NCBI GenBank assembly: GCA_047974765.1
Contig: JBKECP010000027.1
Span: 1-64,000 of the forward strand
DNA: 64,000 bases
Reading direction: 5' to 3'
DNA from: Parahaliea sp.
Lineage (GTDB): Bacteria; Pseudomonadota; Gammaproteobacteria; Pseudomonadales; Halieaceae
Shown: positions 4,031 to 25,377 of the stretch, in pieces
Numbering within the stretch: the stretch's first letter is position 1
How the letters are laid out: the number at the start of each line of letters is the position of its first letter
Translations under genes and position numbers: made by a program
Notes under the pieces: generated by a model
The model's input: only the letters and a program-made list of their open reading frames with translations
Told to the model about the DNA's origin: nothing
Databases searched by the model: none

Positions 4031-7000
4031 TCAATGATTGAGGTTGGATGACAGCCAGCGGGCCATATCCTGTGGTGGTATCTGTTTTCGCCGGGCCAGA
4101 TCATCCACCTGATCCTGTCCGATTTTACCCACTGAAAAATAGCGCGAATCAGGGTGGGAAAAATACCAGCCGCTAACTGCCGCCGCCGGTAGCATGGCGA
4201 AATGATCAGACAGGGTCACACCGGTATTGGCTGTGGCATCAAGCAGTTTAAACAGAGCTGCCTTTTCGGTGTGATCCGGGCAGGCAGGATAACCCGGGGC
4301 GGGGCGAATACCGCGGTAGCGCTCGCGGATCAGGGCCTCGTTGTCGAGGGCTTCATCGGGCGCATAGCCCCACAGTTCACGACGCACCTGCCGATGCAGG
4401 TATTCAGCAAAGGCTTCAGCCAGTCGGTCGGCAAGTGCTTTAACCATAATGGCGCTGTAATCATCGTGCTCGGCGTGAAAGGCTGCAGCCCGTTCAGCCG
4501 CACCGTGACCGGCTGTTACACAGAAACCGCCCACGTAATCGGGCAGGCCACTGCCAACAGGTGCGACAAAGTCAGCCAGAGAGAAATTGGCTTCACCATT
4601 GGGTTTTTCCAACTGCTGGCGCAAATGATGCAGGCGGCTTAATTCTTCGCTGCGGCTCTCGTCAGTGTACAGGATCAGGTCGTCACCATCGCGTTCCGCT
4701 GGCCAGAAACCAACTACTGCACGAGCTGTGAGCCATTTTTCACTGATGATTTTGTCGAGCATGGTACGGGCATCATGGAATAGGTCCCGTGCTTGAGCAC
4801 CAACTTTGGCATCTTCAAGAATGGCCGGGTATTTGCCCGCCAGTTCCCAGGAAATAAAGAAAGGTGTCCAGTCGATAATTTCCAGCAGATTCGCCAGCGG
4901 GAAATCCTCAAATACCCGGGTGCCGGTAAAGGACGGGCGGGGAGGCTGATAATTCTGCCAGTTTAGTTGTAAGCCGTTGGCAGCGGCTTCCGGGTAGGGC
5001 AGGGTGCGGCTGCGGGGTTTGCGATTGGCCACCCGCTCGCGGATAACTTCATAGTCAGCGCGCAGACCGGTAATATAGTCGGCTTTGCCGCTGCCCATCA
5101 ACTGAGTGGCCACAGCCACGCTGCGTGAGGCATCAGGTACATAAACCACCTGATCGTGCTGGTAGATGGGTTCGATCTTGACAGCGGTATGGGCCTTGGA
5201 AGTAGTAGCACCGCCAATCAATAAAGGTACATTAAAATCCCCGCGCTGCATCTCTGAGGCAACGTGTACCATCTCATCCAGGGAGGGCGTAATCAGGCCG
5301 GACAGACCGATAATATCGACCTTTTTTTCACGCGCAATACGCAGGATTTCCTCGCAGTGCACCATCACACCAAGGTCGATGACCTCGAAGTTATTGCACT
5401 GCAATACTACGCCGACGATATTCTTGCCGATATCGTGAACATCACCTTTGACGGTGGCCATCAGAATGCGGCCATTACTGGCAGTAGCCTCAGTTTTTTC
5501 AGCTTCGATGTAGGGTTGCAGATAAGCCACTGCCTGCTTCATCACACGAGCACTTTTGACCACCTGGGGCAGGAACATCTTACCCTCGGCAAAGAGGTCG
5601 CCGACCACATTCATGCCGTCCATCAGCGGGCCTTCGATCACCTGGATGGGGCGTTCGAAGGTCTGCCGGGCTGCTTCTGCATCCTCGACAATATAGGTGT
5701 TGATACCCTTGACCAGCGCATATTCAAGACGCTTGTCAACAGACTGTTCGCGCCAGCTTAAATCTTCACTGCGGGCCTTGTCGCCACCGCTGTCGCGGTA
5801 GCGTTCAGCCAGCTCCAGCAGGCGTTCAGTGCCGTCGTCACGGCGGTTGAGAATGACGTCCTCGACCGCCTCACGCAATTCGGTGGGCAGCTCATCATAA
5901 ACCGCCAGCTGGCCAGCGTTGACGATCCCCATATCCATACCGGCATGAATGGCATGGTAGAGAAAGACAGAGTGGATGGCTTCGCGCACGGGGTTGTTGC
6001 CCCGGAAGGAAAAGGACACATTGGACACTCCGCCCGAGACCAGGGCGCCGGGCAGGCTGGCCTTGATAAAGCGGGTCGCCTCGATGAAATCGACGGCGTA
6101 GTTATTGTGTTCGTCGATACCGGTGGCGACAGCAAAGATGTTCGGATCAAAGATGATATCCCGGGGGTTGAAGCCGACTTCATTGACTAAAAGCTCATAG
6201 CAGCGACGGCAGATGGCCTCGCGCCGTTGCAGGTTGTCGGCCTGGCCGCTCTCATCGAAGGCCATCACCACCACGGCAGCACCATAGCGGCGGCACAGAC
6301 GGGCCTGTTCGAGGAATTCCTCCTCGCCGGCCTTCAGGCTGATGGAATTGACCACCGGCTTGCCCTGAATGCACTTCAAACCAGCTTCAATCACCTGCCA
6401 GCGGGAAGAATCAATCATAATTGGCACCCGCGAAATATCCGGTTCGGAGGCAATCAGATTCAGGAAGGTGACCATCGCCTGCTCGGCGTCCAGCATGCCC
6501 TCATCCATATTGATGTCGATGATCTGGGCGCCGTCTTCCACCTGCACCCGGGCCACTTCAAGAGCGCTCTCGTAGTCGCCTTCCATAACCAGCCGTTTGA
6601 AACGGGCAGAACCTGTCACATTACAGCGTTCACCGACATTGATGAAAAGGCTGCTGGCGGTGATATTAAAGGGTTCCAGGCCGCTCAGACGACAGGCGCC
6701 TTCGGGTTGGGGCAGGGGCCTGGGGGCAATACCTTCGACGGCTTCGGCAATGGCACGGATATGCGCCGGGGTAGTGCCACAGCAACCACCGGCCAGATTG
6801 AGCATGCCGCGCTCGGCAAAGCCGCGAAAGTCTGCGTGCATATCTTCGGGTGTTTCGTCATATTCACCAAAAGCATTGGGCAGGCCAGCATTTAAGTGGG
6901 CACTGAAGTAGCATCCACACACTTTTGAAAGCTCTTCAAGAAATGGCCGTATCTCTTTGAATCTTCTGCCACAATTACTGCCAACAACTAAGGGATTGGC

Positions 7001-12607: not shown

Positions 12608-15600
12608 GCATTGTTGTCGATGCCGCCGAGCGTGAAGCCGCTATCGACCCGACGGCCAGCTTTTGTATCAGTGCGCCGGCCGGCTCGGGCAAGACAGAAT
12701 TACTGATTCAGCGTTATTTGAGCCTGCTGTCACGGGTACAGTACCCGGAACAGATTCTGGCCATTACCTTTACTCGCAAGGCTGCTGCTGAAATGCGTGA
12801 GCGCGTGATAGGGGCATTACAAGCGGCACGGGATGAGCTTGCCTGTGACAGCCATCACCAGCAGCGCACCCGCGAGTTGGCCAATGCGGCCCTGGTAATG
12901 GATGCCAGGCACAATTGGCAACTGCTGGCCAATAGCGCACGTTTTAATATCCGTACTATTGACGGTTTTTGTGCTGTACTTACACGTCAGATGCCGGTGC
13001 TCAGTGGTTTTGGTGCCCAATTAGCCGTAATCGATAATGCCCAGCCTCTGTATGCTGAGGCAGTGGCTGAGCTGTTTGCCGGCCTGGAGCAGGGCAGCCC
13101 GATAGCGGCAGACCTTCGACAATTGATGCTGCATTTTGACAATCGCTGGGATAGTCTGTCGGCGTTATTACAAACACTGCTGGCCAGGCGCAGTCAATGG
13201 CTGAGCTATATGGGGGTACAACGTACCGCCCAGGCCTCAGAACAACAGTTGCGACAAACCCTGGAGGCCTTGATAAAACGCCAGCTGACACGCTCGCTAA
13301 AGCTATTCAAACCCTGGCTGGAAGTACTTTACGCCCTGATGGGCTATGCCTCGGACAATCTGGGTACAACCCGCCCTGACAAACCCGGTAATGCGGTGGC
13401 TGATTTGTCCGCCTGGCGTGCCCTGCGGCATATGTTGCTGGTGGCTGACGGCAGTAAGTGGCGCACCCGTATCACTAAAAATGAAGGTTTTCCCGCTGGC
13501 AAAGGAGCGGGTAAAGCCGAAGCCGACAACTGGAAGGGGCAACTGAAGGCAGTAATTGCTGAATTATCGACGCACAGTGATCAGGATCAATTACGCCTGG
13601 CTTTGACCGCCATTGATCTTTTTCCCAATCCTCAAAATCATCAACGCTCAGATAATACTGCTACTAGTGACAACTGGCAGCTGGTATTGGCACTCGCTCA
13701 TGTACTGCCCATGCTGGCGGCACAGCTGTTACTGGTTTTTCAGCATCACGGCTGTGTCGACCATGCACAAGTGGCACAGTCCGCCCTTGATGCACTGGGC
13801 GAAGATGATACGCCCTCGGATCTGGCCCTCAGACTTGATTACCGTATTGAGCATATTCTGGTGGATGAATTCCAGGATACGGCTATTGACCAGTACCGTC
13901 TGGTAGAGCGCCTGACCCGGGGTTGGGGCGAGCACAATGTGGCCAACCCACAAGCACCGCGTACATTATTGATCGTGGGTGACGGCATGCAGTCAATTTA
14001 TGGTTTTCGCGACGCCAATGTCGGTCTGTTTCTGCGGGCAAGGCAGCACGGCTTTAACGGTGTATTACCGCACTATCTGGTATTGCGTTCAAATTTTCGT
14101 TCTGATGCGGGTATCGTTGACTGGGTTAATTGCACCTTTGGCCAGGTATTTCCCGATGAAGACGATATCAGCCGGGGGCGTGTTAAATTCAGCAAAGCCT
14201 GCGCAGTTAAAGCTGCCGGTATTGAACCCGCCGTTAATGTACGCCTGTATCACAGCGATAATACTGACAGCGCAAAAAATACAGAAAATACTGTTATTTG
14301 CGATCTTATTGAGGCATTACTTAAGCGTTATCCACAGGATCGTATTGCCATACTTGGCCGCAGCCGACCTCAGCTACAGACTCTGCTGGCGCAGTTGCGC
14401 CAGCGCAATATCGCCTTTGCCGCCAATGAGATGGACCGCCTGCAACACTCACCGGTGGTACTGGATTTGATGACATTGGCGCGGGCACTGGCCAATCGGG
14501 CAGATTCTGTTGCCTGGTGGGCCTTGCTGCGAGCCCCCTGGTGTGGCCTGAGTCTGGCCGACCTGCATCAACTGAACCATTTGGGTGAAGTCGGCCCTTA
14601 TCCTGATTTGCTGGCGTTGATTTCAAGCCATCAATATACAGCGGCACTTTCCCCACAGGGCCAGATACGTTGCGCCCACCTGGCCAGTGTACTGAACTGG
14701 GCTGAGGCGCATCGGGGCCGTCGCTCACAACGCGCCTGGCTGGAGCAGATATGGTTGCAACTGGACGGACCGGCAACCGTTGGCAGTGAAAGTGCGCTGG
14801 CTGATGCCGAACAGTTTTTCCGGCTGCTGGAAAGTGCCGAGCTGGAGGGGCGTCAGCTGGATATTCAGTGGCTGCAATCAAAACTCGACTCGCTTTATGC
14901 CGATGCAGGTGGTGGTGGCGCACGGGTTGAAGTAATGACCTTGCACAAAGCCAAAGGACTGGAATTTGAACATGTGTTTATTCCCGGTCTGGCCCGAACC
15001 GGCCGCTCAGATGAGCGCGCATTGTTATTGTGGGATGAATATAGTGATACCGCTGGTGCTGAAGGCTTTTTAATGGCAGCGGATGACCACAGTAAAAAAG
15101 GTGAGGCCAGTCTTTATAATTTTCTGGCAGAACAACGCAAACAAAAGCAATTGCTCGAAAATACCCGTTTGCTTTATGTGGGCGCAACCCGGGCTATTCG
15201 CAGCCTGTATTTAAGTGCCACATTAAGCAGCGATGAGAAAAGCAGCGATGAAAAAAAAGGTGCCATCAAAGCGCCTTCACCACAGAGCCTACTGGCTTGT
15301 ATCTGGCCGGTGGTACAACAACAGGCCCGGCAAATAAACGTACAAAATGAGGTTGATACGGTACCTGTGCAGACGGCGATAATACCTCTACAACGTCTGC
15401 GTAGTATAGCGCCTGTCCCCGATGTGGAGATGCCATCGCTAACGGCCAATACTCATCTGCCACCGCCAGCAGATAATCGTCTTGAACGCCATAGTGGCAC
15501 GGCCATACACCTTGCACTGGAACAACTTGCCCGGCGTGAACGATTACCGATGAAGATGGATTCAGACCTTGAGCATTTGTGTCACTGGGCTTTGCAAAAT

Positions 15601-16011
15601 TCCGGTTTAAGTGGTGAAACATTGCAGGTTGCCCGTCGGCGGGTGAATTTTTCAATCAATAAAACCCTGGCAGACGAGGAGGGTGGACGCTGGTTGCTGC
15701 GCTGTGATCATACTGACAGCTCAACTGAACTGCCATTGGTGCGTGTCGACGAAAAGGGCATTGTCAGACATATCATTATCGATCGCAGTTTTATTGATGC
15801 ACGCAGTGGCAAGCGGTGGATTATTGACTATAAAAGCAGCCAGCCGTTACCGGGTATGGATGTCACTGACTTTTTAAATAAAGAGACTGCCCGTTATCAA
15901 AAGCAGTTGGCAACGTATCATGATGCCCTGAAAAACCTGGGTGATGAACCGATTTGTTGTGCGCTGTATTTCACGGCGCTGGCTAAACTGTTGCCCGTAT
16001 CCATAAATTGA
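12604..16011 (+). CDS. addA: AddA-like UvrD/Rep-family helicase with a C-terminal PD-(D/E)XK nuclease domain
   Basis: The N-terminus has Walker A (APAGSGKTELL) and the C-terminus has the nuclease motif IIDYKSS. A strong GGAGAGGAGGG ribosome-binding site precedes the start, which overlaps addB. Confidence 0.8.
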   Translation: MSIVVDAAEREAAIDPTASFCISAPAGSGKTELLIQRYLSLLSRVQYPEQILAITFTRKAAAEMRERVIGALQAARDELACDSHHQQRTRELANAALVMDARHNWQLLANSARFNIRTIDGFCAVLTRQMPVLSGFGAQLAVIDNAQPLYAEAVAELFAGLEQGSPIAADLRQLMLHFDNRWDSLSALLQTLLARRSQWLSYMGVQRTAQASEQQLRQTLEALIKRQLTRSLKLFKPWLEVLYALMGYASDNLGTTRPDKPGNAVADLSAWRALRHMLLVADGSKWRTRITKNEGFPAGKGAGKAEADNWKGQLKAVIAELSTHSDQDQLRLALTAIDLFPNPQNHQRSDNTATSDNWQLVLALAHVLPMLAAQLLLVFQHHGCVDHAQVAQSALDALGEDDTPSDLALRLDYRIEHILVDEFQDTAIDQYRLVERLTRGWGEHNVANPQAPRTLLIVGDGMQSIYGFRDANVGLFLRARQHGFNGVLPHYLVLRSNFRSDAGIVDWVNCTFGQVFPDEDDISRGRVKFSKACAVKAAGIEPAVNVRLYHSDNTDSAKNTENTVICDLIEALLKRYPQDRIAILGRSRPQLQTLLAQLRQRNIAFAANEMDRLQHSPVVLDLMTLARALANRADSVAWWALLRAPWCGLSLADLHQLNHLGEVGPYPDLLALISSHQYTAALSPQGQIRCAHLASVLNWAEAHRGRRSQRAWLEQIWLQLDGPATVGSESALADAEQFFRLLESAELEGRQLDIQWLQSKLDSLYADAGGGGARVEVMTLHKAKGLEFEHVFIPGLARTGRSDERALLLWDEYSDTAGAEGFLMAADDHSKKGEASLYNFLAEQRKQKQLLENTRLLYVGATRAIRSLYLSATLSSDEKSSDEKKGAIKAPSPQSLLACIWPVVQQQARQINVQNEVDTVPVQTAIIPLQRLRSIAPVPDVEMPSLTANTHLPPPADNRLERHSGTAIHLALEQLARRERLPMKMDSDLEHLCHWALQNSGLSGETLQVARRRVNFSINKTLADEEGGRWLLRCDHTDSSTELPLVRVDEKGIVRHIIIDRSFIDARSGKRWIIDYKSSQPLPGMDVTDFLNKETARYQKQLATYHDALKNLGDEPICCALYFTALAKLLPVSIN

Positions 16012-16397
16012 CCATCATCACAGGCATATTTCGAGATATCCAAAATGCATACTAAACAAGGTAAAGTCTGATGAGCTACCCTATATTTAACATAATATAT
16101 ATTATGCGCAATTATAAGTGAGGCAATTTTGAGCGTGCTCGTGAGCGTAAACCTTACCGTCCCTGCGTTAGATTCTGGAGCATACTGGCGCAATTTCCGG
16201 GCTGATACCTCACCCGGGTTCTTGGCCTTGCTGATCTTTCTCTGCCATTCTCCAGCTAATACCAGCCAGAGCCCAGTTTCAGCTATTTATTTTGGCAGTG
16301 GACAAAAACTACAACAGGGAAACACCATTACTCAGCAAAAAGACCAGAAAATAAAAGCAACCGCCACAACTCTATTCAAGGACTTTTGGGATAGACA

Positions 16398-16589
16398 TCA
16401 AGCTGCACCCCGGCTGTGACGAAGCTGGAACAGATCATAATTGGCCTGCATGGATAACCAGAATTCAGCGCTACCGCCACCGGCCTGCTCCAGTGCCAAT
16501 GCCATTTCCGGTGTTACCGAAGCACTGCCGTTGACAGCCCGGTTCAGAGTGTTGCGGTGGCAGCCCAGCTGTTTGGCAAGGATGGCCAC
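16398..16589 (-). pseudogene. HigA-family (XRE HTH) antitoxin, N-terminally truncated by an in-frame TAA
   Basis: ...EDEDGHKINSVAILAKQLGCHRNTLNRAVNGSASVTPEMALALEQAGGGSAEFWLSMQANYDLFQ aligns to HigA from the first helix onward. The conserved N-terminal HPGEIL segment is missing because a stop lies at 16623-16625. The only available start is GTG. Confidence 0.5.
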
Positions 16590-16823
16590 GCTATTGATCT
16601 TGTGGCCGTCTTCATCTTCGATTTAAGACACACTGCGACATGGCTTTCAAACAGCTTTTCCATGGGAAACATCAGACTGATACCCATATGCTTACCGCGC
16701 TGGAAGTTTGGATTCAGCTGCTCCCCTGGCTGACTGACAGATGGGCAAAGTCCACCTCAAAAGTCTGCCCGAGTATAGCAGTGGCGACGACCGGATTTCT
16801 GCGAAGCATCACTCACTTCGCGC

Positions 16824-17981
16824 TTATTGCGCACTTACAGCCGGCGCCAGTTTGACCAGGTCGTTGAGTACACCGTCCAGACCACCGTAGACGGAAATCC
16901 GGTCGATCTGCCCGCTGACCCGTTCGAGGGCTTCCAGCTCTTTCAGGCGCAACAGGATGGGGTTGTTCTCCATCATCTTGGCGGTGTTATGCAGGGATCT
17001 CATCGCCTGTGTTTCTTCGCGGCGTTTGATCAGGTTGGCTTCAGACTCTTTCTGGGCCTGCACCACCTGGTTGAGAATATCCTTCATATCACCGGGCAGG
17101 ATGATGTCCTTGACCCCGATGCTCATCAGCTCGATACCGTAATGGGCCAGTCTGGCGCTGGCGCCCTCGGCAATTTTGCTGTTCAGCGCATCTTTGTCCT
17201 CCAGCAACACATCCAGTGACTGTGTACCAACAGCTTCGCGCAGGCGCAGTTGCAGCTCCTGGTAGATAAAGCCGACGTAGTCATTCAGCTTTAAAGCCAC
17301 GGTTTCGGGCTCAACGACGCGGTAGCTGCCGCTCAGGTTGATGCGCAGGCTGACCCGGTCCCGGGTCAGGATTTCCTGCCCGCTGACTTCGATCGGCTGC
17401 AGCCGCAAATCCAGCAATTTAACGCCGACCGAGCGGTTGAACTGCCAGAAGCCGTGGCTGCCAGGTTCGAGCATACCCTCAAAGGTACCGTTCACCGTCA
17501 GCAGGCCCAGGTGTTCGTTGGGCACTTCGATGTAGTTGACGGCGCTGGCAATGTTCCTGTTGCCAGCCAGTTTCGAACCGCGTCCCAGCAGGCCGAGCAG
17601 GCTTTTATCAACCTGGTAGTGCTCGCTGATATCGACAATTTCAAGCCTGATTTTTTCAACCCCTTTCCACACGGTCAGGTAAGAGCCGGGCACCAGTACA
17701 TCAGCCAGCTTGTCGTCGCGGTACAGCAGACCTACCTGCTGGTCGCTCAGCTCAAAGCACTCCAGATGAGCGCTCAACTGTCCGGCATGTGTTGACAGCA
17801 GGAACCTGGCAATGGGGTGAGAGAAAATGACTTCGCTAATGTCGAAGGTCTCCACTCGTACGCTGCCACCGGTGCGCGCAATGCGATGGCGCCCGGGCAG
17901 CAAGACGCTTTTGAAGCGGTTTCTCCGGAACAGCAGTGCCCTTTCGTTATCGGCAATATCATAAGTTTTCCATAACATCAT
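16824..17981 (-). CDS. SPFH/band-7 domain protein (slipin-like)
   Basis: The 386-aa protein from MMLWKTYDIADNERALLF has a band-7 core and a C-terminal coiled-coil region. A GGAG ribosome-binding site lies 8 nt upstream of the ATG at 17981. Confidence 0.7.
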   Translation of the reverse strand: MMLWKTYDIADNERALLFRRNRFKSVLLPGRHRIARTGGSVRVETFDISEVIFSHPIARFLLSTHAGQLSAHLECFELSDQQVGLLYRDDKLADVLVPGSYLTVWKGVEKIRLEIVDISEHYQVDKSLLGLLGRGSKLAGNRNIASAVNYIEVPNEHLGLLTVNGTFEGMLEPGSHGFWQFNRSVGVKLLDLRLQPIEVSGQEILTRDRVSLRINLSGSYRVVEPETVALKLNDYVGFIYQELQLRLREAVGTQSLDVLLEDKDALNSKIAEGASARLAHYGIELMSIGVKDIILPGDMKDILNQVVQAQKESEANLIKRREETQAMRSLHNTAKMMENNPILLRLKELEALERVSGQIDRISVYGGLDGVLNDLVKLAPAVSAQ

Positions 17982-18306
17982 TGTTTTTCTCCTTCGCGCT
18001 GCTCTCTCCTCTTTTTGGGGTGCAGCCATAGCTTCCATAAAAATTGATGGGCGAGGCCCACCCGGATTGCACAGGGGCTGCCTGCTTTGACGGTTCAGAC
18101 CTGGGGGATCAGTGGCTGGCCCGGTAGCGAGGATATAAACTTCGTCCCGGCTACACAGCCAGCATGATCGCCCGGCGTGAACAGTCGTTCACAAACAGCG
18201 TCCACACAGTCGGCGCTCTCTACCGGCAATTGCCCGGCCACCACTTTGCTGCCGTTTAAAAGCCGTCAGAGAACCATGGGCCTCTGGTAGATTTCATAAG
18301 GGTTTT

Positions 18307-18365
18307 AACCCTGAGGAGGATTCGAACCTCGGACTCTCGCCGTATCCAATCGCGTAAAAGGCGAT
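18307..18365 (-). ncRNA. Partial tRNA-like element with a Lys-type anticodon arm (CTTTTAC), T-arm GGTTCGAATCC and 3' acceptor strand, but no 5' acceptor strand or D-arm
   Basis: Minus strand: ATCGC-CTTTTAC-GCGAT TGG ATACGGCGAGAGTC CGAGG-TTCGAAT-CCTCC TCAGGGT. It resembles tRNA-Lys from the anticodon arm onward, with a ~14-nt insertion in the variable region. Confidence 0.4.
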
Positions 18366-18366
18366 G

Positions 18367-18439
18367 TTACTTTGACAGGAATTGAACCTGTTACCCATTG
18401 ATTAATCATCAATTGCTCTACCTATTGAGCTACAAAGTA
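18367..18439 (-). tRNA. tRNA-like gene, 73 nt, perfect cloverleaf on a tRNA-Lys-like scaffold with an atypical anticodon loop (TGATTAA, G at position 33)
   Basis: Minus strand: TACTTTG TA GCTC AATAGGTA GAGC A ATTGA TGATTAA TCAAT GGGTA ACAGG TTCAATT CCTGT CAAAGTA A. All four stems pair and the G18G19 and T54T55C56 elements are present. GC content is about 34%, against about 55% for the surrounding DNA. The scaffold is close to tRNA-Lys, whose anticodon loop is CTTTTAA. Confidence 0.55.
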
Positions 18440-18782
18440 GTTGTTCAGGCCTTTCTCGAATTGGTACACAAAGAGCCAGTGGCCATTGCGCCAGGCAGGC
18501 TGTTGAACCTGCACCGCTAATTCTCAAAACGTCTCCCGAACCTTGTTGGAGCCGGAATTTTAGTTATTCCGACTCACATTCATTGGGACCACTGTATCGT
18601 TATAGTGGCCCTGTTAACTTCAATTACACCTGACTATGGCGCATTCTGTCCGGCCCCTGCCTCCGGCATCGCTGGTCGGGACACGCCGTAAATACGTCCA
18701 TGCAGGCTCGGTTCGCGCATCCATGCACTCAACGGTCCCGCCCAGCGACACCAGAGTCAGTGCCCTCGTAAGGTGCCGGGGC

Positions 18783-18818
18783 TTATAAATAGTTGCTGTC
18801 TTAATAAATAGCAGCAAC
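18783..18818 (-). terminator. Candidate terminator/attenuator hairpin spanning the rtcA stop codon
   Basis: Minus strand: GTTGCTG-CTATTTATTAAGA-CAGCAAC followed by TATTTATAAGC. The loop is long, so this is a weak call. Confidence 0.3.
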
Positions 18819-19823
18819 CGTCACCTGCCAGTCATCACGGCCCAGTTCCTCGCAGCTGATCCGACCCGCTGCAAACTGCTGTATCACCTCGATATTGGTC
18901 AGCAGGTGCTGGCTGGGGCGCAGCGTTCTGAAGCGGCCGCCTTTGGCCAGCAGCAGCGGCAGAATCAGCTGGTCGGCCAGGTGCTCGCCCACCGGTACGC
19001 CGGCCTTCAGGTAGCGCCGCAAATCCTGGATGGCTCGGCCTGCCACCCGTTCGGCGCTCAGCCCCTTCTCCCCTACCACCTCAAACACTTCGGTCAGGGT
19101 ATCACTGCCGAACCTGATCGACAGAATATTGCCGGGGCCCATCGAGTGAACCGTGCGCGCCCGCAATGACTCTTGTGGCCACTGACACTTCTTGTGTACA
19201 TGGGCCAGCTCCCGTTCATTTACATGTTCCGGGATATTGGCGGAAGTCGCCAGCGCCAGGCCGTTTTTCTGCTCGCCTCGTGCAAGCAGTGTCAGCGGCC
19301 GGCTGGCAGCCAGTGGCGAGATTTTTGCCCGCCAGCGGCCACCGCCCGCAGGGTAGAAGCCAACGTGTTCCAGCTCGCTTTCGACCTCAGCGCCAATGGT
19401 CACCAGTACCGGCAGAAAACACTGCTCGATAAAGTCATAGCTCGGTGCCATGCCGTTATGGGTGCCACCTTCGAAGGTGATGTTGCTGACTGCATCAGCC
19501 AGTAGCAGTGGCGGAAGCACGGTCTGGAATACCAGCGTAGTGCTGCCGGCGGAGCCAATGGCGAAGTGGAAGTCACCGGCCACTACCGGGCCGGGCTTGA
19601 AGGTCACTTCGCTGGCACCCAGTTCGGCACCCTTGACCTGCGCATTACAGATGGCTTGCGCCGCCTTGACGCAGGTCAGGTGCTGGCGCAGCAGGCCGGG
19701 GCGTTGGCGGCCGGCGCGAATGTTGCTGATGCGCACGCTCTTGCCCAGGCAGGCTGCCAGGCTGAGGCTGGTGCGCAGAATCTGGCCACCGCCCTCCCCT
19801 TGTGATCCATCAATCTCAATCAT
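18801..19823 (-). CDS. rtcA: RNA 3'-terminal phosphate cyclase
   Basis: MIEIDGSQGEGGGQILRTSLSLAA... gives a 340-aa protein. A strong GGGAGGAAAC ribosome-binding site precedes the ATG at 19823. Confidence 0.9.
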   Translation of the reverse strand: MIEIDGSQGEGGGQILRTSLSLAACLGKSVRISNIRAGRQRPGLLRQHLTCVKAAQAICNAQVKGAELGASEVTFKPGPVVAGDFHFAIGSAGSTTLVFQTVLPPLLLADAVSNITFEGGTHNGMAPSYDFIEQCFLPVLVTIGAEVESELEHVGFYPAGGGRWRAKISPLAASRPLTLLARGEQKNGLALATSANIPEHVNERELAHVHKKCQWPQESLRARTVHSMGPGNILSIRFGSDTLTEVFEVVGEKGLSAERVAGRAIQDLRRYLKAGVPVGEHLADQLILPLLLAKGGRFRTLRPSQHLLTNIEVIQQFAAGRISCEELGRDDWQVTVAAIY

Positions 19824-19919
19824 GTTTCCTCCCTTGATCCCTGTCCGCCCTTTCCTGTTGCTCTTTGGTACTGTGCTACCGAAGGCCAGTGTCCTCACAA
19901 TATACCGAGGTTCACCTTT

Positions 19920-21146
19920 TTAACCCTTCACACACACAACCTGTTTCAGCGTATACACGATTTCCACCAGGTCCTGCTGCGCTGCCATCACCTTTTCTAT
20001 CGGCTTGTAAGCAGAAGGGGTTTCATCGATCACGCCCTCGTCTTTACGGCATTCCACATCGGCGGTTGCCTGCCGGTGCTCTTCCAGAGACACCAGTTTT
20101 TTCGCTTTGGTGCGCGACATAACCCGCCCCGCGCCGTGGCTGCAGCTGCAGAAGCTCTCTTCGTTACCGAGCCCGCGGACGATGAAGGAACGCGCCCCCA
20201 TGCTGCCGGGGATGATGCCCATCTCGCCCTGGCGGGCCCGCACCGCACCTTTACGGGTAACCAGCACATTTTTGCCGTAGTGCTGTTCTCGTGAAACGTA
20301 GTTGTGGTGGCAGTTTACGGCTTCCACCCGCGCTTCAAACTCCCTGGCCAGTGCATCCCTGGTGGCCTGTATAACCCGGGCCATCATCACCTCGCGGTTG
20401 ATGCGGGCGAAGTTCTGCGCCCACTCCACGGCTTCGATGTATTCATCGAAGTGCTCGGTGCCTTCCGGCAAATAAGCCAGGTCGCTATCCGGCAAGCGGA
20501 TATGCCAGTGTTCCATATCTTTTTTGGCCGTCTCGATAAAGTGTGTACCGATCCGGTTGCCCACGCCGCGTGAGCCGCTGTGCAACATCAGCCAGACGCT
20601 GCCCTGTTCATCCAGGCACATTTCGATGAAATGGTTGCCTGTTCCCAGAGTACCGAGATGGTTGATGTTGTTGGTGTTTTTAAGCACGCGGTGCTTGTCT
20701 TTCAACATATCAAACTGCATCGACAGAGGTGCCCAGGCCTGCATTACATCGCTGGGAATATCATTCCAGGCGCCTTTATCGCGGCCCCCCCGGGCTCGGG
20801 CGGAACGGCCATGAGGCACCGCCCGCTCGATCGCAGAGCGCACGCCGGCCAGGTTGTCCGGCAGCTGGTCAGCCTGCAGGCTGGTGCGTACGGCCATCAT
20901 GCCGCAGCCGATATCCACACCTACAGCGGCCGGGATCACTGCACCCAGGGTCGGCACTACGCTGCCGATAGTGGCGCCTTTGCCCAGGTGAACATCCGGC
21001 ATGGCCGCTACCCACTGGTGGATAAATGGCATGCGTGAAATGTTCTTCAGCTGTTCTTTGGCCTCGTCCTCGAAGGGCACGCCTACGGTCCAGGATTTAA
21101 TCGGTACGCCACCTGCCTGCATCACTTCGTAAGATTGTCCGCTCAT
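19920..21146 (-). CDS. rtcB: RNA-splicing ligase RtcB (3'-phosphate/5'-OH RNA ligase)
   Basis: The 408-aa protein is colinear with E. coli RtcB (MSGQSYEVMQAGGVPIKSWT...HSGSRGVGNRIGT...CHHNYV). Confidence 0.95.
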   Translation of the reverse strand: MSGQSYEVMQAGGVPIKSWTVGVPFEDEAKEQLKNISRMPFIHQWVAAMPDVHLGKGATIGSVVPTLGAVIPAAVGVDIGCGMMAVRTSLQADQLPDNLAGVRSAIERAVPHGRSARARGGRDKGAWNDIPSDVMQAWAPLSMQFDMLKDKHRVLKNTNNINHLGTLGTGNHFIEMCLDEQGSVWLMLHSGSRGVGNRIGTHFIETAKKDMEHWHIRLPDSDLAYLPEGTEHFDEYIEAVEWAQNFARINREVMMARVIQATRDALAREFEARVEAVNCHHNYVSREQHYGKNVLVTRKGAVRARQGEMGIIPGSMGARSFIVRGLGNEESFCSCSHGAGRVMSRTKAKKLVSLEEHRQATADVECRKDEGVIDETPSAYKPIEKVMAAQQDLVEIVYTLKQVVCVKG

Positions 21147-21194
21147 GGTTCTGGTCCTGTATTCAGTCTCTGATTTGCTTACGATGGTATGTAT

Positions 21195-21210
21195 AGCGAG
21201 ATTGATGCCA
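21195..21210 (-). promoter_or_regulatory. Candidate sigma54 (-24/-12) promoter for rtcBA
   Basis: The minus strand reads TGGCAT-CAATC-TCGCT, against the consensus TGGCAC-N5-TTGCW. It lies about 50 nt upstream of the rtcB ATG in the AT-rich divergent region shared with rtcR. Confidence 0.35.
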
Positions 21211-21356
21211 ACTTTGCCATTTTTATAAAAATTATTTTTAAACCATTGTTTTTAATATATTTATTTTTTATTTTTCGATTGCGACCTGGAGTGGCCTAAA
21301 TTATCAGAATAATATTTTCTATCCATTAAGATATATTTCTATTATATTCGATAGTT

Positions 21357-22991
21357 ATGAAGACAATTGCTATCTCTATTCTCGGCACCACCATCGACCG
21401 GCGCGGTAAAGGCGACAAGCGCTGGGACAAGTGGCGCCCTACCATCTCCATGTGCCAGCACGATGACCTGCTGATTGATCGCCTGGAGTTGCTGTTTGAT
21501 GAAGGCGTCCAGCCACTGGCGAATCAGGTAACAGAGGATATTGCTCGCATCTCCCCGGAAACCGAGGTGATCCATCACCATGTCAACTTCAAAGACCCCT
21601 GGGACTTCGAAAGTGTTTACAGTGAATTGCTGGACTTTGCCCGCGCCTATCGCTTTGAGCGGGAGAGTGAAAACTACCTGATCCACATTACCACCGGTAC
21701 CCACGTGGCTCAGATTTGCCTCTACCTGCTGACCGAGGCCGGCTACCTGCCGGGCAAGTTGTTACAGACCTCCCCTGCCCGCCGTCGCAGCAACAGCCCG
21801 GGTGAGTACCAGATGATCGACCTGGATCTGTCCCGCTACGACCAGATTGCCTCCCGCTTTCAAAAGGAGCACCAGGAAGGCACGACTTACCTGAAAGGCG
21901 GCATTCAGACCAGCAATCATGCCTTTAACCTGATGATCGAGCAGCTGGAAAAGGTCTCTGTCCGTTCCGAGGAGCCCATTTTGCTGACCGGGCCGACCGG
22001 CGCCGGTAAAAGCCAACTGGCCCAGCGGGTTTACAAATTGCGCAAACAGCGCGGCAAGCTGGACGGACGGCTGGTGGCCGTCAACTGTGCAACCCTGCGC
22101 GGTGAGAACGCCATGTCGGCCCTGTTCGGCCACAAAAAAGGCGCTTTTACCGGCGCTACCAGCGATCGCCCCGGTCTGCTTAAAGAAGCTGACAACGGCC
22201 TGTTATTTCTCGATGAAGTCGGTGAGCTGGGCCTCGACGAGCAGGCCATGCTGCTGCGCGCCATTGAAGACAAGCGCTTTATGCCCTTTGGCGCAGACAG
22301 GGAAATCAGCAGTAATTTCCAGCTGATAGCAGGCACCAATAAAGACCTGGCCCAGCAGTCAAAAAAAGGGCTTTTCCGGGAGGATCTGCTGGCGCGGATC
22401 AATCTCTGGACCTACAAACTGCCCTCCCTGCGGCAGCGCCCGGAGGATCTGGAACCGAATATTGACTATGAGCTGGAATCCTTTGCCGGCAAGTCCGGTC
22501 AACTGATCCGCTTTAATAAAGCGGCGCGGGCGCGTTACCTGAGCTTCAGCCAGTCACCAGAAGCTCTGTGGAGTGCCAATTTCAGAGATCTCAATGCCAG
22601 CATTACCCGTATGGCAACGCTTGCCGACAGTGGCCGAATTACTATAGACCAGGTGGATGAAGAAATTGATCGTCTGCGACACAAGTGGCGGCCCGACACG
22701 GATTCAGCCCCGGATGCAAACACTCTGATCCTGCAAGGTATCCTGCTGCCTGCACAGCTGGCTGAGCTGGATCTTTATGAGCAGATTATTCTGGCCGGTC
22801 TTGTCGATGTCTGCAAGAATGCAAGATCTATGGCCGAAGCGGGCAGGAAACTTTTTAATGTCAGTCGTATATCCAGGCACTCATCCAATGACAGTCACCG
22901 GCTAAAACAAATGTTGAACAAATACGGTCTGTCATTTAGCGATATTCATGACTTTGTTGCGGCCAAAAAGACCGTATCCAGTATTCAGTAA
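21357..22991 (+). CDS. rtcR: Sigma54-dependent transcriptional activator RtcR (CARF-like sensor, AAA+ and HTH domains)
   Basis: The gene is divergent from rtcBA. It carries Walker A (GPTGAGKS), the GAFTGA sigma54-contact motif (GHKKGAFTGA) and a C-terminal HTH. Confidence 0.9.
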   Translation: MKTIAISILGTTIDRRGKGDKRWDKWRPTISMCQHDDLLIDRLELLFDEGVQPLANQVTEDIARISPETEVIHHHVNFKDPWDFESVYSELLDFARAYRFERESENYLIHITTGTHVAQICLYLLTEAGYLPGKLLQTSPARRRSNSPGEYQMIDLDLSRYDQIASRFQKEHQEGTTYLKGGIQTSNHAFNLMIEQLEKVSVRSEEPILLTGPTGAGKSQLAQRVYKLRKQRGKLDGRLVAVNCATLRGENAMSALFGHKKGAFTGATSDRPGLLKEADNGLLFLDEVGELGLDEQAMLLRAIEDKRFMPFGADREISSNFQLIAGTNKDLAQQSKKGLFREDLLARINLWTYKLPSLRQRPEDLEPNIDYELESFAGKSGQLIRFNKAARARYLSFSQSPEALWSANFRDLNASITRMATLADSGRITIDQVDEEIDRLRHKWRPDTDSAPDANTLILQGILLPAQLAELDLYEQIILAGLVDVCKNARSMAEAGRKLFNVSRISRHSSNDSHRLKQMLNKYGLSFSDIHDFVAAKKTVSSIQ

Positions 22992-23026
22992 TACCCTTGT
23001 AGCCTGTCAGGCTGGGGTATTTTTTG
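22992..23026 (+). terminator. Rho-independent terminator after rtcR
   Basis: TACCCttgtAGCCTGtcAGGCTGGGGTA is followed by TTTTTTG. Confidence 0.55.
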
Positions 23027-23214
23027 CCTGCTCCCGCTTGCTTTTATTGGGCCTGCTGACGCAGATAAACAATTTAATGGCGCCAGATTACAAATATTGA
23101 TGTGTTATTGTCACTAGTCTATGGTTAGCGACTGCTGTTTTTTTACAAATTTTAGAAACCGTGATGTGTCTCGACCATCGCAGATGATAACAATACAATA
23201 CAGGACGTAGGTCA

Positions 23215-25377
23215 ATGCATTGCGTATCTTCCACTACCGCTTTATTTGCCGTCCGGCTGTTATGTTTGGTGCTGCTCAGTGGTGCCGGTTCAGCTATTAC
23301 AACAGCCTCTGGAGAAACCCGGGCAACCCCCTCCCCTGTTACCGATCAACGCCTGGTCAACGCCATCCATGACGATGCCAACTGGCTGTCTTATGGCAAG
23401 GACTACAGCGATCAGCGTTACAGCCGCCTAAACAGTATTAATGCCGAAAATATAGCTGAACTGGGGCTTGCCTGGTCTAAGGATATTCATAGCCCCTATG
23501 CCGTTGAAGCCACGCCACTGGTTATTGATGGCGTTATGTATGCGGCTCTGCCAGGCAATGTGGTCTGGGCGCTGGATGCCAAAACCGGTCAGCATTTATG
23601 GGAGTTCAAACCACAGCTCGATCTGACTTATGGCCGTGTCATGTGCTGCGGACAGGTCACTCGCGGTTTGGCTGCCTGGGGAGATAATATTTATATCGCC
23701 ACCATTGATGGGCAGCTGATAGCGGTTAATCGTCACAGCGGCAAACAGGTGTGGCAGGTGCAAACGGCGTCAATGAAAGATGGCTATACCATTACGGCAG
23801 CGCCGAGGGCGCTCAAGGGTATGATTGTCGTGGGTAATGGTGGCGGTGAATTTCGGGCCCGAGGGTATGTTACTGCTTACGATGCAGCAACCGGTAAGCA
23901 AAAATGGCGCTTTTATACGGTTCCGGGCAACCCAGCTGACGGCTTTGAAAATGAAGCTATGGCAATAGCGGCAAAAACCTGGACCGGTCAGTGGTGGCAG
24001 CACGGCGGCGGCGGCAATGTCTGGGACTCCATGGCTTATGATCCACAGCTTGATCTGCTTTATCTCGGTGTTGGCAACGGCGGCCCCAATAATGCCAAGT
24101 TACGCAGCCCCGAAGGTGGTGACAATCTCTTTCTTGCCTCAATTGTTGCCCTGGACCCGGATGACGGCAGTTATGTCTGGCACTTTCAGTTGAACCCGGC
24201 GGAAACCTGGGACTATACCGCAACGCAGCAAATGAGCCTGGTTGATATGAAAATCAATGGCAAACTGCGTAAGGTAATTCTGCAAGCGCCCAAAAACGGC
24301 TTTTTCTACGTTATTGATCGTGAGAGCGGTGAATTTCTTTCAGCGGGGAAGTATGCGCCGCTGAACTGGGCAACGCACATTGATCAGCAAACAGGCAAAC
24401 CGGTAGAGACACCCTGGGCCCGTTTTTATGAAACAGATCAGGCCGTACATATTGTGCCGGGTATTCAGGGAGCGCACAGCTGGCAATCCATGTCTTACAG
24501 CCAGGATACCGGGCTGGTATATATTCCTGTACATCACTACGGCATGGTGCATAAGGCTTATACCGCCGAAAAAACCCGTCGGCAGGTTTATACTTCCGGT
24601 ATTGATCATCTGCAAATGCGTATTCCCGACGACAAACAAACAGTAGAGGCGCTGCGCCAGCAGCATAGCGGTGAGCTGATTGCCTGGGATCCACAGCAAC
24701 AAAAACCGGCCTGGTCTGTGCGTTATGATCACCCCTGGAATGGTGGTGTACTGTCAACGGCGGGCAATCTGGTTTTTCAGGGTACGGCTGCAACCGAGTT
24801 CATTGCCTATGCTGCAGACAGCGGTAAAAAACTCTGGTCCTACGCCACGCAAAGCAGCACCGTCGCGGCGCCAATCAGCTATGCCGTAGACGATGAGCAA
24901 TATATCGCCGTTATGACCGGTTGGGGCGGTTCATTCTCCAACGGTCTGGGTGGTGTTATACCCGCACAGGGCAAGGCAAATGCCGGTCAGATACTGGTCT
25001 TTAAACTGGGAGGCAAGGCTACTGCCACGATATTCCCGGAGGCTGCACCTGTTAAACCATCGGTGCCTGCTGATACCAGCAGCACACAGGATGTTATCGC
25101 CAAAGGAGAGGAAATGTACTACCTCCTTTGCCTGCCCTGCCACGGTGAGGGCGCAGTGGCGGGTCTGAATTTCCCGGACTTGCGCCACAGTGGCTTTATT
25201 CATACACAAGAAGCCTTTGATGCTGTTGTATTACAGGGTGCTCTGGCTGACAAAGGGATGTCCAGCTTCAGTGACAAACTGTCGGCGCAGGAGTCTATCG
25301 CCCTGCGCAACTATCTTATCCGTCGTGCCAACACGAAAACAGCCAAGGATTCCATAACCACGGAGCCTCATCAATGA
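23215..25377 (+). CDS. Quinohemoprotein (type II) PQQ-dependent alcohol dehydrogenase with a C-terminal cytochrome c domain
   Basis: Signal peptide, eight-bladed PQQ propeller motifs (..WxxDxxTG..), the disulfide pair and a C-terminal CLPCH heme-c motif. Confidence 0.85.
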   Translation: MHCVSSTTALFAVRLLCLVLLSGAGSAITTASGETRATPSPVTDQRLVNAIHDDANWLSYGKDYSDQRYSRLNSINAENIAELGLAWSKDIHSPYAVEATPLVIDGVMYAALPGNVVWALDAKTGQHLWEFKPQLDLTYGRVMCCGQVTRGLAAWGDNIYIATIDGQLIAVNRHSGKQVWQVQTASMKDGYTITAAPRALKGMIVVGNGGGEFRARGYVTAYDAATGKQKWRFYTVPGNPADGFENEAMAIAAKTWTGQWWQHGGGGNVWDSMAYDPQLDLLYLGVGNGGPNNAKLRSPEGGDNLFLASIVALDPDDGSYVWHFQLNPAETWDYTATQQMSLVDMKINGKLRKVILQAPKNGFFYVIDRESGEFLSAGKYAPLNWATHIDQQTGKPVETPWARFYETDQAVHIVPGIQGAHSWQSMSYSQDTGLVYIPVHHYGMVHKAYTAEKTRRQVYTSGIDHLQMRIPDDKQTVEALRQQHSGELIAWDPQQQKPAWSVRYDHPWNGGVLSTAGNLVFQGTAATEFIAYAADSGKKLWSYATQSSTVAAPISYAVDDEQYIAVMTGWGGSFSNGLGGVIPAQGKANAGQILVFKLGGKATATIFPEAAPVKPSVPADTSSTQDVIAKGEEMYYLLCLPCHGEGAVAGLNFPDLRHSGFIHTQEAFDAVVLQGALADKGMSSFSDKLSAQESIALRNYLIRRANTKTAKDSITTEPHQ

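Follow-up and report, generated by a model that had tools for sequence, protein, structure and literature searches.

The window analyzed here, a 64,000-nt stretch of Parahaliea sp. DNA (contig JBKECP010000027.1, positions 1 to 64,000), carries an rtcR-rtcB-rtcA locus in which a tRNA-like RNA lies upstream of a gene for a protein of the SPFH/Band-7 ("slipin") family. An earlier inspection of the letters, hereafter the sequence-only reading, had flagged the span 18307–18439 of this locus as a tRNA-Lys-like cloverleaf followed by a second, truncated tRNA-like piece. The genes around the span and a candidate promoter are the following.

16824–17981, minus strand: SPFH/Band-7 ("slipin") gene, 385 aa (Pfam Band_7, E = 2.2e-28; open reading frame [ORF] 16824–18038).
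18801–19898, minus strand: rtcA, RNA 3'-terminal phosphate cyclase (Pfam RTC, E = 2.7e-76).
19920–21146, minus strand: rtcB, RNA ligase (Pfam RtcB, E = 9.6e-134).
21196–21210, minus strand: candidate sigma-54-type promoter TGGCAT-N5-TCGC upstream of rtcB, read from the sequence.
21357–22991, plus strand, divergent: rtcR, a sigma-54 activator with an N-terminal RtcR/CARF domain (Pfam RtcR, E = 1.7e-84; Sigma54_activat, E = 1.8e-46).

Together with the RNA, the four genes occupy 16824–22991. The Band-7 ORF is 100% identical to a 385-aa "slipin family protein" of a Parahaliea sp. metagenome-assembled genome (MAG), with its start at 17981, and RtcA has a 100% identical match in the same MAG. The other Pfam matches among the neighboring ORFs were a PQQ dehydrogenase and AddAB-type nucleases; no RlaP, HNH, HD, or CCA-type gene was found in the window. 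The RNA ends 292 nt before the start codon of slipin, both being encoded on the same strand. The cloverleaf had been placed right after the rtcA stop, a position that has to be corrected: the rtcA ORF ends at 18801, leaving 361 nt between the two. A sigma-70-like promoter was sought in 16700–19000, and none was found. We infer that rtcB, rtcA, the RNA, and slipin form a single transcript from the candidate sigma-54 promoter.

On the minus strand, 18367–18439 folds into a near-perfect cloverleaf of 73 nt, the sole tRNA-like gene of the window. ARAGORN labeled it "tRNA-Asn (att)," and the Rfam tRNA model matched it with 61.3 bits over all 71 model positions (E = 8e-11; gathering score, 29), in good agreement with the textbook cloverleaf described in the sequence-only reading. 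It consists of an acceptor stem of 7 bp, a D-arm whose loop has the usual GG, a 5-bp anticodon stem, a T-arm with the loop UUCAAUU, and discriminator A. CCA is not encoded (the 3' end reads AAC-AUCGC...), and the next hairpin begins 2 nt past the discriminator base. Position 33 of tRNAs is a universal U. In the alignment to the Rfam model, the 7-nt anticodon loop of this element reads UGAUUAA, which puts a G at position 33 and gives the anticodon AUU; the aberrant loop noted earlier was thus recovered.

The identification with tRNA-Lys, by contrast, did not hold. The phage tRNAs nearest to the cloverleaf were those for Asn, Thr, and Lys, and the commonest anticodon among its relatives is CAU, so that the likeness to tRNA-Lys appears to be generic. 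The AT-richness that had been pointed out is present in this copy, with a GC content of 34% in the cloverleaf and 44% in the flagged span against 53% in the window and 61% in rtcA. However, the copies of relatives have 43 to 60% GC, and AT-richness is therefore a trait of the window copy and not of the element.

Comparison with relatives placed the cloverleaf within a longer conserved RNA, with the following parts.

18273–18549, minus strand: conserved core of 277 nt, comprising modules A, B, and C and a 3' tail (10-locus alignment).
18443–18541, minus strand: module A, helices 1 to 4 of the comparative structure (covariance model R1, 93.9 bits).
18367–18439, minus strand: module B, the b7a-tRNA proper (Rfam tRNA, ARAGORN, and compensatory changes in the stems).
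18299–18365, minus strand: module C, the headless tRNA-like part (C1 and C3 from covariation, C2 and C4 from a by-eye reading of the alignments).
18349–18365, minus strand: hairpin C1, AUCGC-CUUUUAC-GCGAU, which covaries (helix 9).
18332–18341, minus strand: hairpin C2, GGC-GAGA-GUC, capped by a GNRA tetraloop (alignments, by eye).
18316–18330, minus strand: C3, a T-arm, GAGG-UUCGAAU-CCUC, which covaries (helix 10).
18299–18312, minus strand: hairpin C4 (alignments, by eye).

The flagged span is thus only the middle of a conserved 277-nt element, and both flagged pieces belong to one RNA. RNAalifold, applied to the 10 sequences, gave a structure of 61 pairs, 23 of them with compensatory double changes. 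In an explicit count for this structure, 97.7% of the cells were paired, and none of 500 shuffles reached any of five measures; slid controls showed 34 to 42% pairing and at most 5 compensatory pairs. The sequence-only reading had named covariation in relatives as a check, and the outcome speaks for a conserved element rather than a dead scar. The minimum-free-energy fold of the window sequence alone was weakly better than shuffles (z = -1.85), and it departs from the comparative structure outside the cloverleaf. Within module B, compensatory changes were present in the acceptor, anticodon, and T stems (helices 5, 7, and 8).

Module A is closed by stem P1 (GUUCGGG/CCUGAAC), followed by stem P3 (GAAUU/AAUUC), which leads into a junction. 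Two hairpins emerge from the junction: P4 (GCAGG-UUCAACAG-CCUGC), which resembles a T-arm, and the long P5 (GCGCAA...UUGUGU, plus an inner stem), which is built from the invariant motifs GGCRCAA and UGUGUACC. P1 was 100% paired, one of its pairs appearing as U-A, C-G, and U-G. Compensatory changes affected 4 of the 5 pairs of P3 (e.g., UUACUC/GAGUAA in locus L001) and 5 of the 11 pairs of P5. We also considered the module A motif YGGCRCAA as a sigma-54 promoter and rejected it, since it covaries as an RNA helix and lacks a -12 GC.

Module C has neither a D-arm nor a 5' acceptor strand and contains the only other T-arm motif of the window. The second piece had accordingly been described as an anticodon-type hairpin and a T-arm without these two parts, and this much stands. 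Its supposed 3' acceptor strand, however, is the 5' half of hairpin C4, which reads CAAGG/CCUUG here and CAGGA/UCCUG in relatives (by eye). Likewise, what had been taken for about 14 extra nt in a variable region is the conserved hairpin C2, where GGC-GAGA-GUC alternates with GGC-GAAA-GCC and GGUC-GAGA-GACC across relatives (again by eye). The CUUUUAC loop of C1 is replaced in relatives by CUUGGAA, CGUGUAA, CUAAAAA, and CUUUCAA. The piece is therefore better described as a maintained, structured module with compensatory changes than as a headless tRNA-Lys copy, its UUU loop not being conserved.

When Rfam was searched at a permissive threshold over 17900–18900, only the generic tRNA model and chance matches were returned, with no YrlA, Y RNA, or transfer-messenger RNA. 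The class thus has no Rfam family of its own and is matched by the generic tRNA model only. This search, too, had been suggested with the tRNA and Y_RNA/YrlA families in mind, and the tRNA match fell on 18367–18439.

In marked difference to its stem, the anticodon loop of module B drifts. Among 16 loci, it occurred in 12 forms of 5 to 7 nt: CUCAUAA (3 loci), CUAAUAA (3 loci), UUCAUAA and CUAUUAA (1 locus each), UGAUUAA in the window, the single-locus 7-nt loops UUAAGGA, UCAAACA, and GGAUUUU, the 6-nt loops UGAACG, CAACCA, and CAGAAG (6-nt loops being those of L001, L018, and L020), and, in Burkholderia, a loop of about 5 nt. Because the loop drifts while the stem that carries it covaries (helix 7), selection acts on the tRNA body or shape and not on decoding. 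A decoding tRNA is expected to have a 7-nt loop with U33 and an anticodon conserved in its orthologues, and the window copy has G33 and orthologues with variable loops. These observations support the view that the anticodon loop can be dispensed with, whereas the tRNA body is retained, and they indicate that the RNA is a non-decoding mimic of tRNA shape. In this respect the proposal of a non-decoding tRNA mimic tied to the RtcR/RtcB/RtcA system was borne out, both by the drifting loop and by the conservation of the RNA in Rtc operons.

Four loci (L010, L029, L031, and L032) have a canonical 7-nt loop with U33 and the anticodon CAU (CUCAUAA, or UUCAUAA in L031), and in L031 and L032, A-CCA is encoded past the acceptor stem. 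That CAU is the commonest anticodon suggests descent from a tRNA(CAU)-type ancestor and not from tRNA-Lys. Canonical tRNA(CAU) genes (Met/Ile2 type) resemble module B in overall sequence and fold, and the four loci share their anticodon, loop length, and U33. Unlike those genes, the window copy carries G33 and AUU, its loop differs from one orthologue to the next, and it forms part of a larger conserved structure.

To collect relatives, three routes were used: an RtcA search, a scan of metagenomes with a DNA pattern of the conserved flank, and a slipin search. The same composite element was found in 14 non-redundant loci of marine Gammaproteobacteria (the window, L001, L010, L013, L014, L017 to L021, and L029 to L032), the carriers being Microbulbifer, Porticoccus, Marinobacterium, Litoribrevibacter, Agarilytica, Candidatus Endobugula, and several MAGs. 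The RtcA-based search of genome contigs yielded mostly distant loci without the RNA, and the metagenome pattern scan gave four loci, one of which (L022) is truncated or chimeric. Viral contigs, scanned with a pattern of module A, gave no match.

In all 14 close loci and in four distant ones, the RNA lies directly 5' of the Band-7 gene on the same strand, and every examined locus with an intact Band-7 gene has the RNA. It is absent from the RtcA loci that lack an intact Band-7 gene (L002 to L009, L012, L016, and L011, the last with a Band-7 fragment only). In L010, L014, L019, and L029, moreover, tRNA gene arrays and an HNH gene lie between rtcA and the RNA. The constant partner of the RNA is therefore the downstream Band-7 gene and not rtcA, which had been regarded as the linked neighbor.

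The four distant loci, with slipin homologues of 34 to 46% identity, are from Burkholderia, Photobacterium, Escherichia coli, and the Firmicute Subdoligranulum, and each has a tRNA-like or T-arm RNA within about 300 nt upstream of slipin. Covariance model R1, built on module A, is too narrow for these four forms, and the homology of their P5-like motif is a by-eye reading. In Burkholderia and Photobacterium, the order is a divergent rtcR, a sigma-54-like promoter, the RNA, the slipin gene, and rtcB, and rtcA was not detected in the fetched loci. RtcB is adjacent in L026, L027, and L028. The Burkholderia form consists of a T-arm minihelix followed by a cloverleaf. In Photobacterium, two tRNA-like units follow each other (Rfam, 54.1 and 46.4 bits); the second, equivalent to module C, retains a D-arm.

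In E. coli STEC639 (L025, 4660–6919), slipin and nucleotidyltransferase genes lie between a DUF3811 gene and lysC without an adjacent rtcB, and a reduced RNA with the T-arm AUGGG-UUCGAUU-CCCAC precedes slipin. A sigma-54-like promoter of the form TGGCAC-N5-TCGC precedes the RNA and the Band-7 gene in both E. coli and Burkholderia. The E. coli leader region is present in 1,632 of 5,426 complete genomes, away from rtcBA, and RefSeq annotates no RNA feature there. A search of E. coli genomes with the window DNA gave no match.

Several further observations were made at the collected loci. In many relatives, the stretch from rtcA or rtcB to the RNA holds 3 to 16 tRNA genes of ordinary appearance, beside an HNH endonuclease gene (arrays at L010, 5689–6201; L014, 5075–5479; L019, 4335–5162; L020, 3454–3692; L029, 25–1831; and L031, 952–1295). 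The HNH gene was not seen in L020, a 4.5-kb contig, and the window has no array. The anticodon types include Asn, His, Gln, Lys, Glu, Thr, Arg, Gly, and Pro. These arrays may be stress-inducible spare tRNAs or a mobile module of HNH gene plus tRNA array. Within the L010 array, 5780–5945 is tRNA-like (acceptor GCCCCAU/AUGGGGC, then ACCA) with an apparent multi-hairpin insertion of about 90 nt in the T-loop region, seen by eye only, and ARAGORN makes no call there. In Candidatus Endobugula sertula, two RtcB genes (L031, 1–911 and 6829–7149) flank a unit of tRNA array, HNH gene, RNA, and slipin, and the locus also holds metallophosphatase and CCA-type nucleotidyltransferase genes. Up to the end of the 5' half of module B, module A included, the L022 element (1475–1751) is identical to that of L017; within the anticodon arm it changes over to an ordinary tRNA(CAU) gene that includes CCA, as an assembly chimera or a recombinant would. 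Finally, a match on two Nostoc plasmids (L023 and L024), in an unannotated 2.5-kb gap free of coding sequences downstream of an HNH gene, was rejected as a relative of the RNA: no Band-7 or RtcB gene is nearby, and we read it as a tRNA gene array.

The conserved 3' tail of the RNA had no covarying pairing partner inside the 277-nt core. Its partner was found further downstream, in the leader of the Band-7 gene, where the following features lie.

18277–18284, minus strand: 5' strand of a long-range helix, GAGGCCCA, inside the conserved 3' tail AAAUCUACCAGAGGCCCAUGG; pairs with 18053–18060.
18053–18060, minus strand: 3' strand of the long-range helix, UGGGCCUC, 72 nt upstream of the Band-7 start codon.
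18036–18063, minus strand: terminator-like local hairpin GGGUG-GGCCU-CGCCC, followed by AUCAAUUUUUAUG (terminator scan).

The 8-bp helix was paired in 112 of 112 cells in the 14 loci, and 3 of its 8 pairs were fully compensatory, with C-G, U-A, and U-G at two positions and G-C and A-U at the third. None of 500 shuffles reached its pairing or its covariation score, and slid controls were 24 to 49% paired. The partner lies 213 to 257 nt downstream of the tail across loci (about 220 nt in the window). Photobacterium has an analogous long-range helix of 8 + 6 bp with an unrelated sequence. Since the tail pairs near the Band-7 ribosome-binding site, the RNA and the Band-7 mRNA would at least initially be one transcript, and we conclude from this comparison that the RNA and the slipin leader form one folding unit.

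The local hairpin overlaps the UGGGCCUC site and is mutually exclusive with the long-range helix. It has 5 bp and was 92% paired in 10 loci, with covariation no better than that of shuffles, and the U-run after it is not conserved. The two structures may act as a switch. Another conserved motif, CAAGC-N3-5-CAGCCCC (CAAAGCAGGCAGCCCC in the window), lies just upstream of the helix partner, at 18080–18100 and equivalent positions, and the remainder of the spacer of about 220 nt is conserved among close relatives only. The structured leader may thus reach beyond the 277-nt core.

In the AlphaFold model of slipin (predicted local distance difference test [pLDDT], 77; predicted template modeling score [pTM], 0.47), three beta repeats at the N terminus precede an SPFH domain, and long helices follow at the C terminus. 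The model has no evident transmembrane helix, and the protein is probably soluble. In Foldseek searches, the model matched stomatin, HflK/C, and prohibitin cages (E of about 1e-13) and, over about 450 columns, the major vault protein (E of about 1e-10), with a query-normalized TM-score of 0.42 to 0.44. The predicted fold fits an oligomeric scaffold without proving one. With the vault particle, made of major vault protein and vault RNA, the slipin model shares the N-terminal beta repeats, the SPFH "shoulder," and the long helices. Vaults contain small structured RNAs. However, slipin has 3 repeats and the major vault protein has 9, vault RNAs are not tRNA-like in the same way, and slipin is known here from a model.

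A 2018 preprint from the Wolin laboratory describes b7a-tRNA as an RNA that lies beside RtcB and a Band-7 protein and "strongly resembles an authentic tRNA" (bioRxiv 10.1101/312249). According to this preprint, which cites Burroughs and Aravind 2016, b7a-tRNA is thought to be functionally redundant with YrlA, without experimental validation (bioRxiv 10.1101/312249). The window element shows all three genomic traits, namely, the Band-7 neighbor, the RtcB neighborhood, and the strong tRNA likeness, and we regard it as a newly found member of this class, predicted in 2016, as far as the preprint's description allows the comparison. Beyond that description, we found modules A and C, the drift of the loop, the long-range helix, and the vault-like repeats of slipin.

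The comparison with YrlA made in the sequence-only reading was apt, and the same likeness has been drawn for the predicted class (bioRxiv 10.1101/312249). YrlA and Ro60, encoded in rsr-yrlBA-rtcBA operons (Rfam RF02553; Chen et al. 2014, PMC4201824), likewise combine a tRNA-mimicking noncoding RNA in an RtcR/RtcB operon with a ring- or cage-forming protein partner. T-arm and D-arm elements are shared as well, and a long stem closes module A here. In contrast to YrlA/Ro60, the window has a complete cloverleaf, a second tRNA-like module, and a partner protein of the SPFH type. The YrlA (RF02553) and Y_RNA models gave no match in 17900–18900 at E values up to 10; as a positive control, the same search recovered two YrlA copies in L003 (84.9 and 74.1 bits). 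No Ro60/TROVE domain was present among the Pfam matches of the neighboring ORFs.

Taken together, we consider it likely that the flagged pieces are modules B and C of a noncoding RNA of about 277 nt that accompanies a Band-7 gene in RtcR-controlled RtcB operons and is the likely partner RNA of the Band-7 protein. RtcR, once activated by tRNA damage, would drive transcription of the RNA from the sigma-54 promoter of rtcB, and the RNA would act as the partner of an oligomeric Band-7 protein. Its tRNA-shaped scaffold may gather RtcB, RtcA (in relatives also RlaP and CCA-type nucleotidyltransferases), or damaged tRNAs, as a Y RNA does for Ro60, and the long-range helix may tie the expression of Band-7 to how the RNA folds or is processed. 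In the abstract of Burroughs and Aravind 2016, SPFH/Band-7 modules that come with "a novel tRNA-like molecule" are reportedly put forward as potential scaffolding cofactors.

Several points weigh against this explanation. A module-A-like element (L012, 5098–5193; 20.5 bits, E = 0.013) occurs in a locus that has no Band-7 gene. This element of Motiliproteus, located between rtcA and a CCA-type nucleotidyltransferase gene and devoid of modules B and C, may be a remnant or a minimal variant. The copies with CAU loops, including the A-CCA-bearing ones of L031 and L032, could still be working tRNAs. The scaffold role is deduced from gene neighborhood and shape. The slipin model is of moderate confidence and its vault resemblance partial, and the definition of the b7a-tRNA class was taken second-hand from the 2018 preprint, not from the 2016 original.

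Alternatively, the RNA could mainly be a cis-acting leader of the Band-7 mRNA, a view that we hold to be possible, if rather doubtful. Here, module folding, cleavage by RNase P/Z, or a tRNA-binding factor would govern the pairing of the tail with UGGGCCUC, which would prevent a hairpin that is terminator-like or close to the ribosome-binding site and so set Band-7 expression; an added role in trans would be compatible with it. This is in agreement with the constant place of the RNA directly before the Band-7 gene, in the same orientation, with the long-range helix and its three covarying pairs ending shortly before the start codon, with the overlap between the helix partner and the hairpin plus U-run flagged by the scan, and with the analogous helix of Photobacterium. 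On the other hand, the short local hairpin does not covary better than shuffles, its U-run is not conserved, no ligand or sensor was identified, and a tRNA-like structure of about 280 nt far exceeds the needs of a simple attenuator.

In a more far-reaching version of the partner-RNA explanation, slipin would be a cytoplasmic, damage-inducible, vault-like or Ro/Y-like cage that binds or encloses the leader RNA and concentrates broken tRNAs together with RtcB, RtcA, and RlaP, the covarying long-range helix letting the state of the tRNA-like RNA determine the amount of cage protein. We consider this version unlikely.

It is decidedly unlikely that the RNA serves as a decoy or inhibitor of anticodon nucleases of the PrrC/RloC type acting on tRNA-Lys, as an RtcB substrate, or as a ligand of the RtcR CARF domain. 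Its linkage to the rtcR-rtcB-rtcA operon would suit such roles, as would the finding that RtcR is activated by tRNA fragments with a cyclic phosphate end (Hughes et al. 2020). Nevertheless, the variability of the anticodon loop argues against a decoy tuned to one anticodon nuclease: the very loop that such a nuclease recognizes varies in sequence and length among the 16 loci, Lys UUU is never conserved in it, and neither piece keeps a Lys anticodon across relatives. Moreover, the RNA follows the Band-7 gene and not rtcA or rtcR, and in E. coli the module of RNA, slipin, and nucleotidyltransferase lies away from rtcBA.

It is very improbable that the cloverleaf functions as a tRNA that decodes under stress through an unusual anticodon (AUU or an edited derivative). 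Its score of 61.3 bits and the four relatives with a canonical CAU loop, two of them with A-CCA, would fit this view. However, the window copy has G33 instead of the universal U33, the anticodons of the orthologues differ, with 6-nt loops in L001, L018, and L020 and about 5 nt in Burkholderia, and in place of an encoded CCA a hairpin follows 2 nt past the discriminator base. A dead pseudo-tRNA or a decayed site of tRNA-targeted integration, to which the AT-rich window copy and the missing tRNA 5' half of the second piece would point, is barely credible, given that different genera retain the arrangement, every helix showing compensatory substitutions, that no att-like direct repeats were found within 10 kb (14000–24000) and the two pieces differ in sequence, that the sole other T-arm motif of the window belongs to module C, and that no integrase was present among the large neighboring ORFs scanned against Pfam.

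The substrates of bacterial RtcB and the way in which RtcB finds them are largely an open question on which this RNA class bears. The Band-7-associated RNA is one of two predicted RNA cofactors of RtcB operons, the other being Y RNA. The covariation-supported secondary structure of the 277-nt RNA could seed a family model, and the conserved long-range helix links the RNA to the translation signals of its partner gene. Finally, the E. coli form opens the class to experiment in a standard organism.

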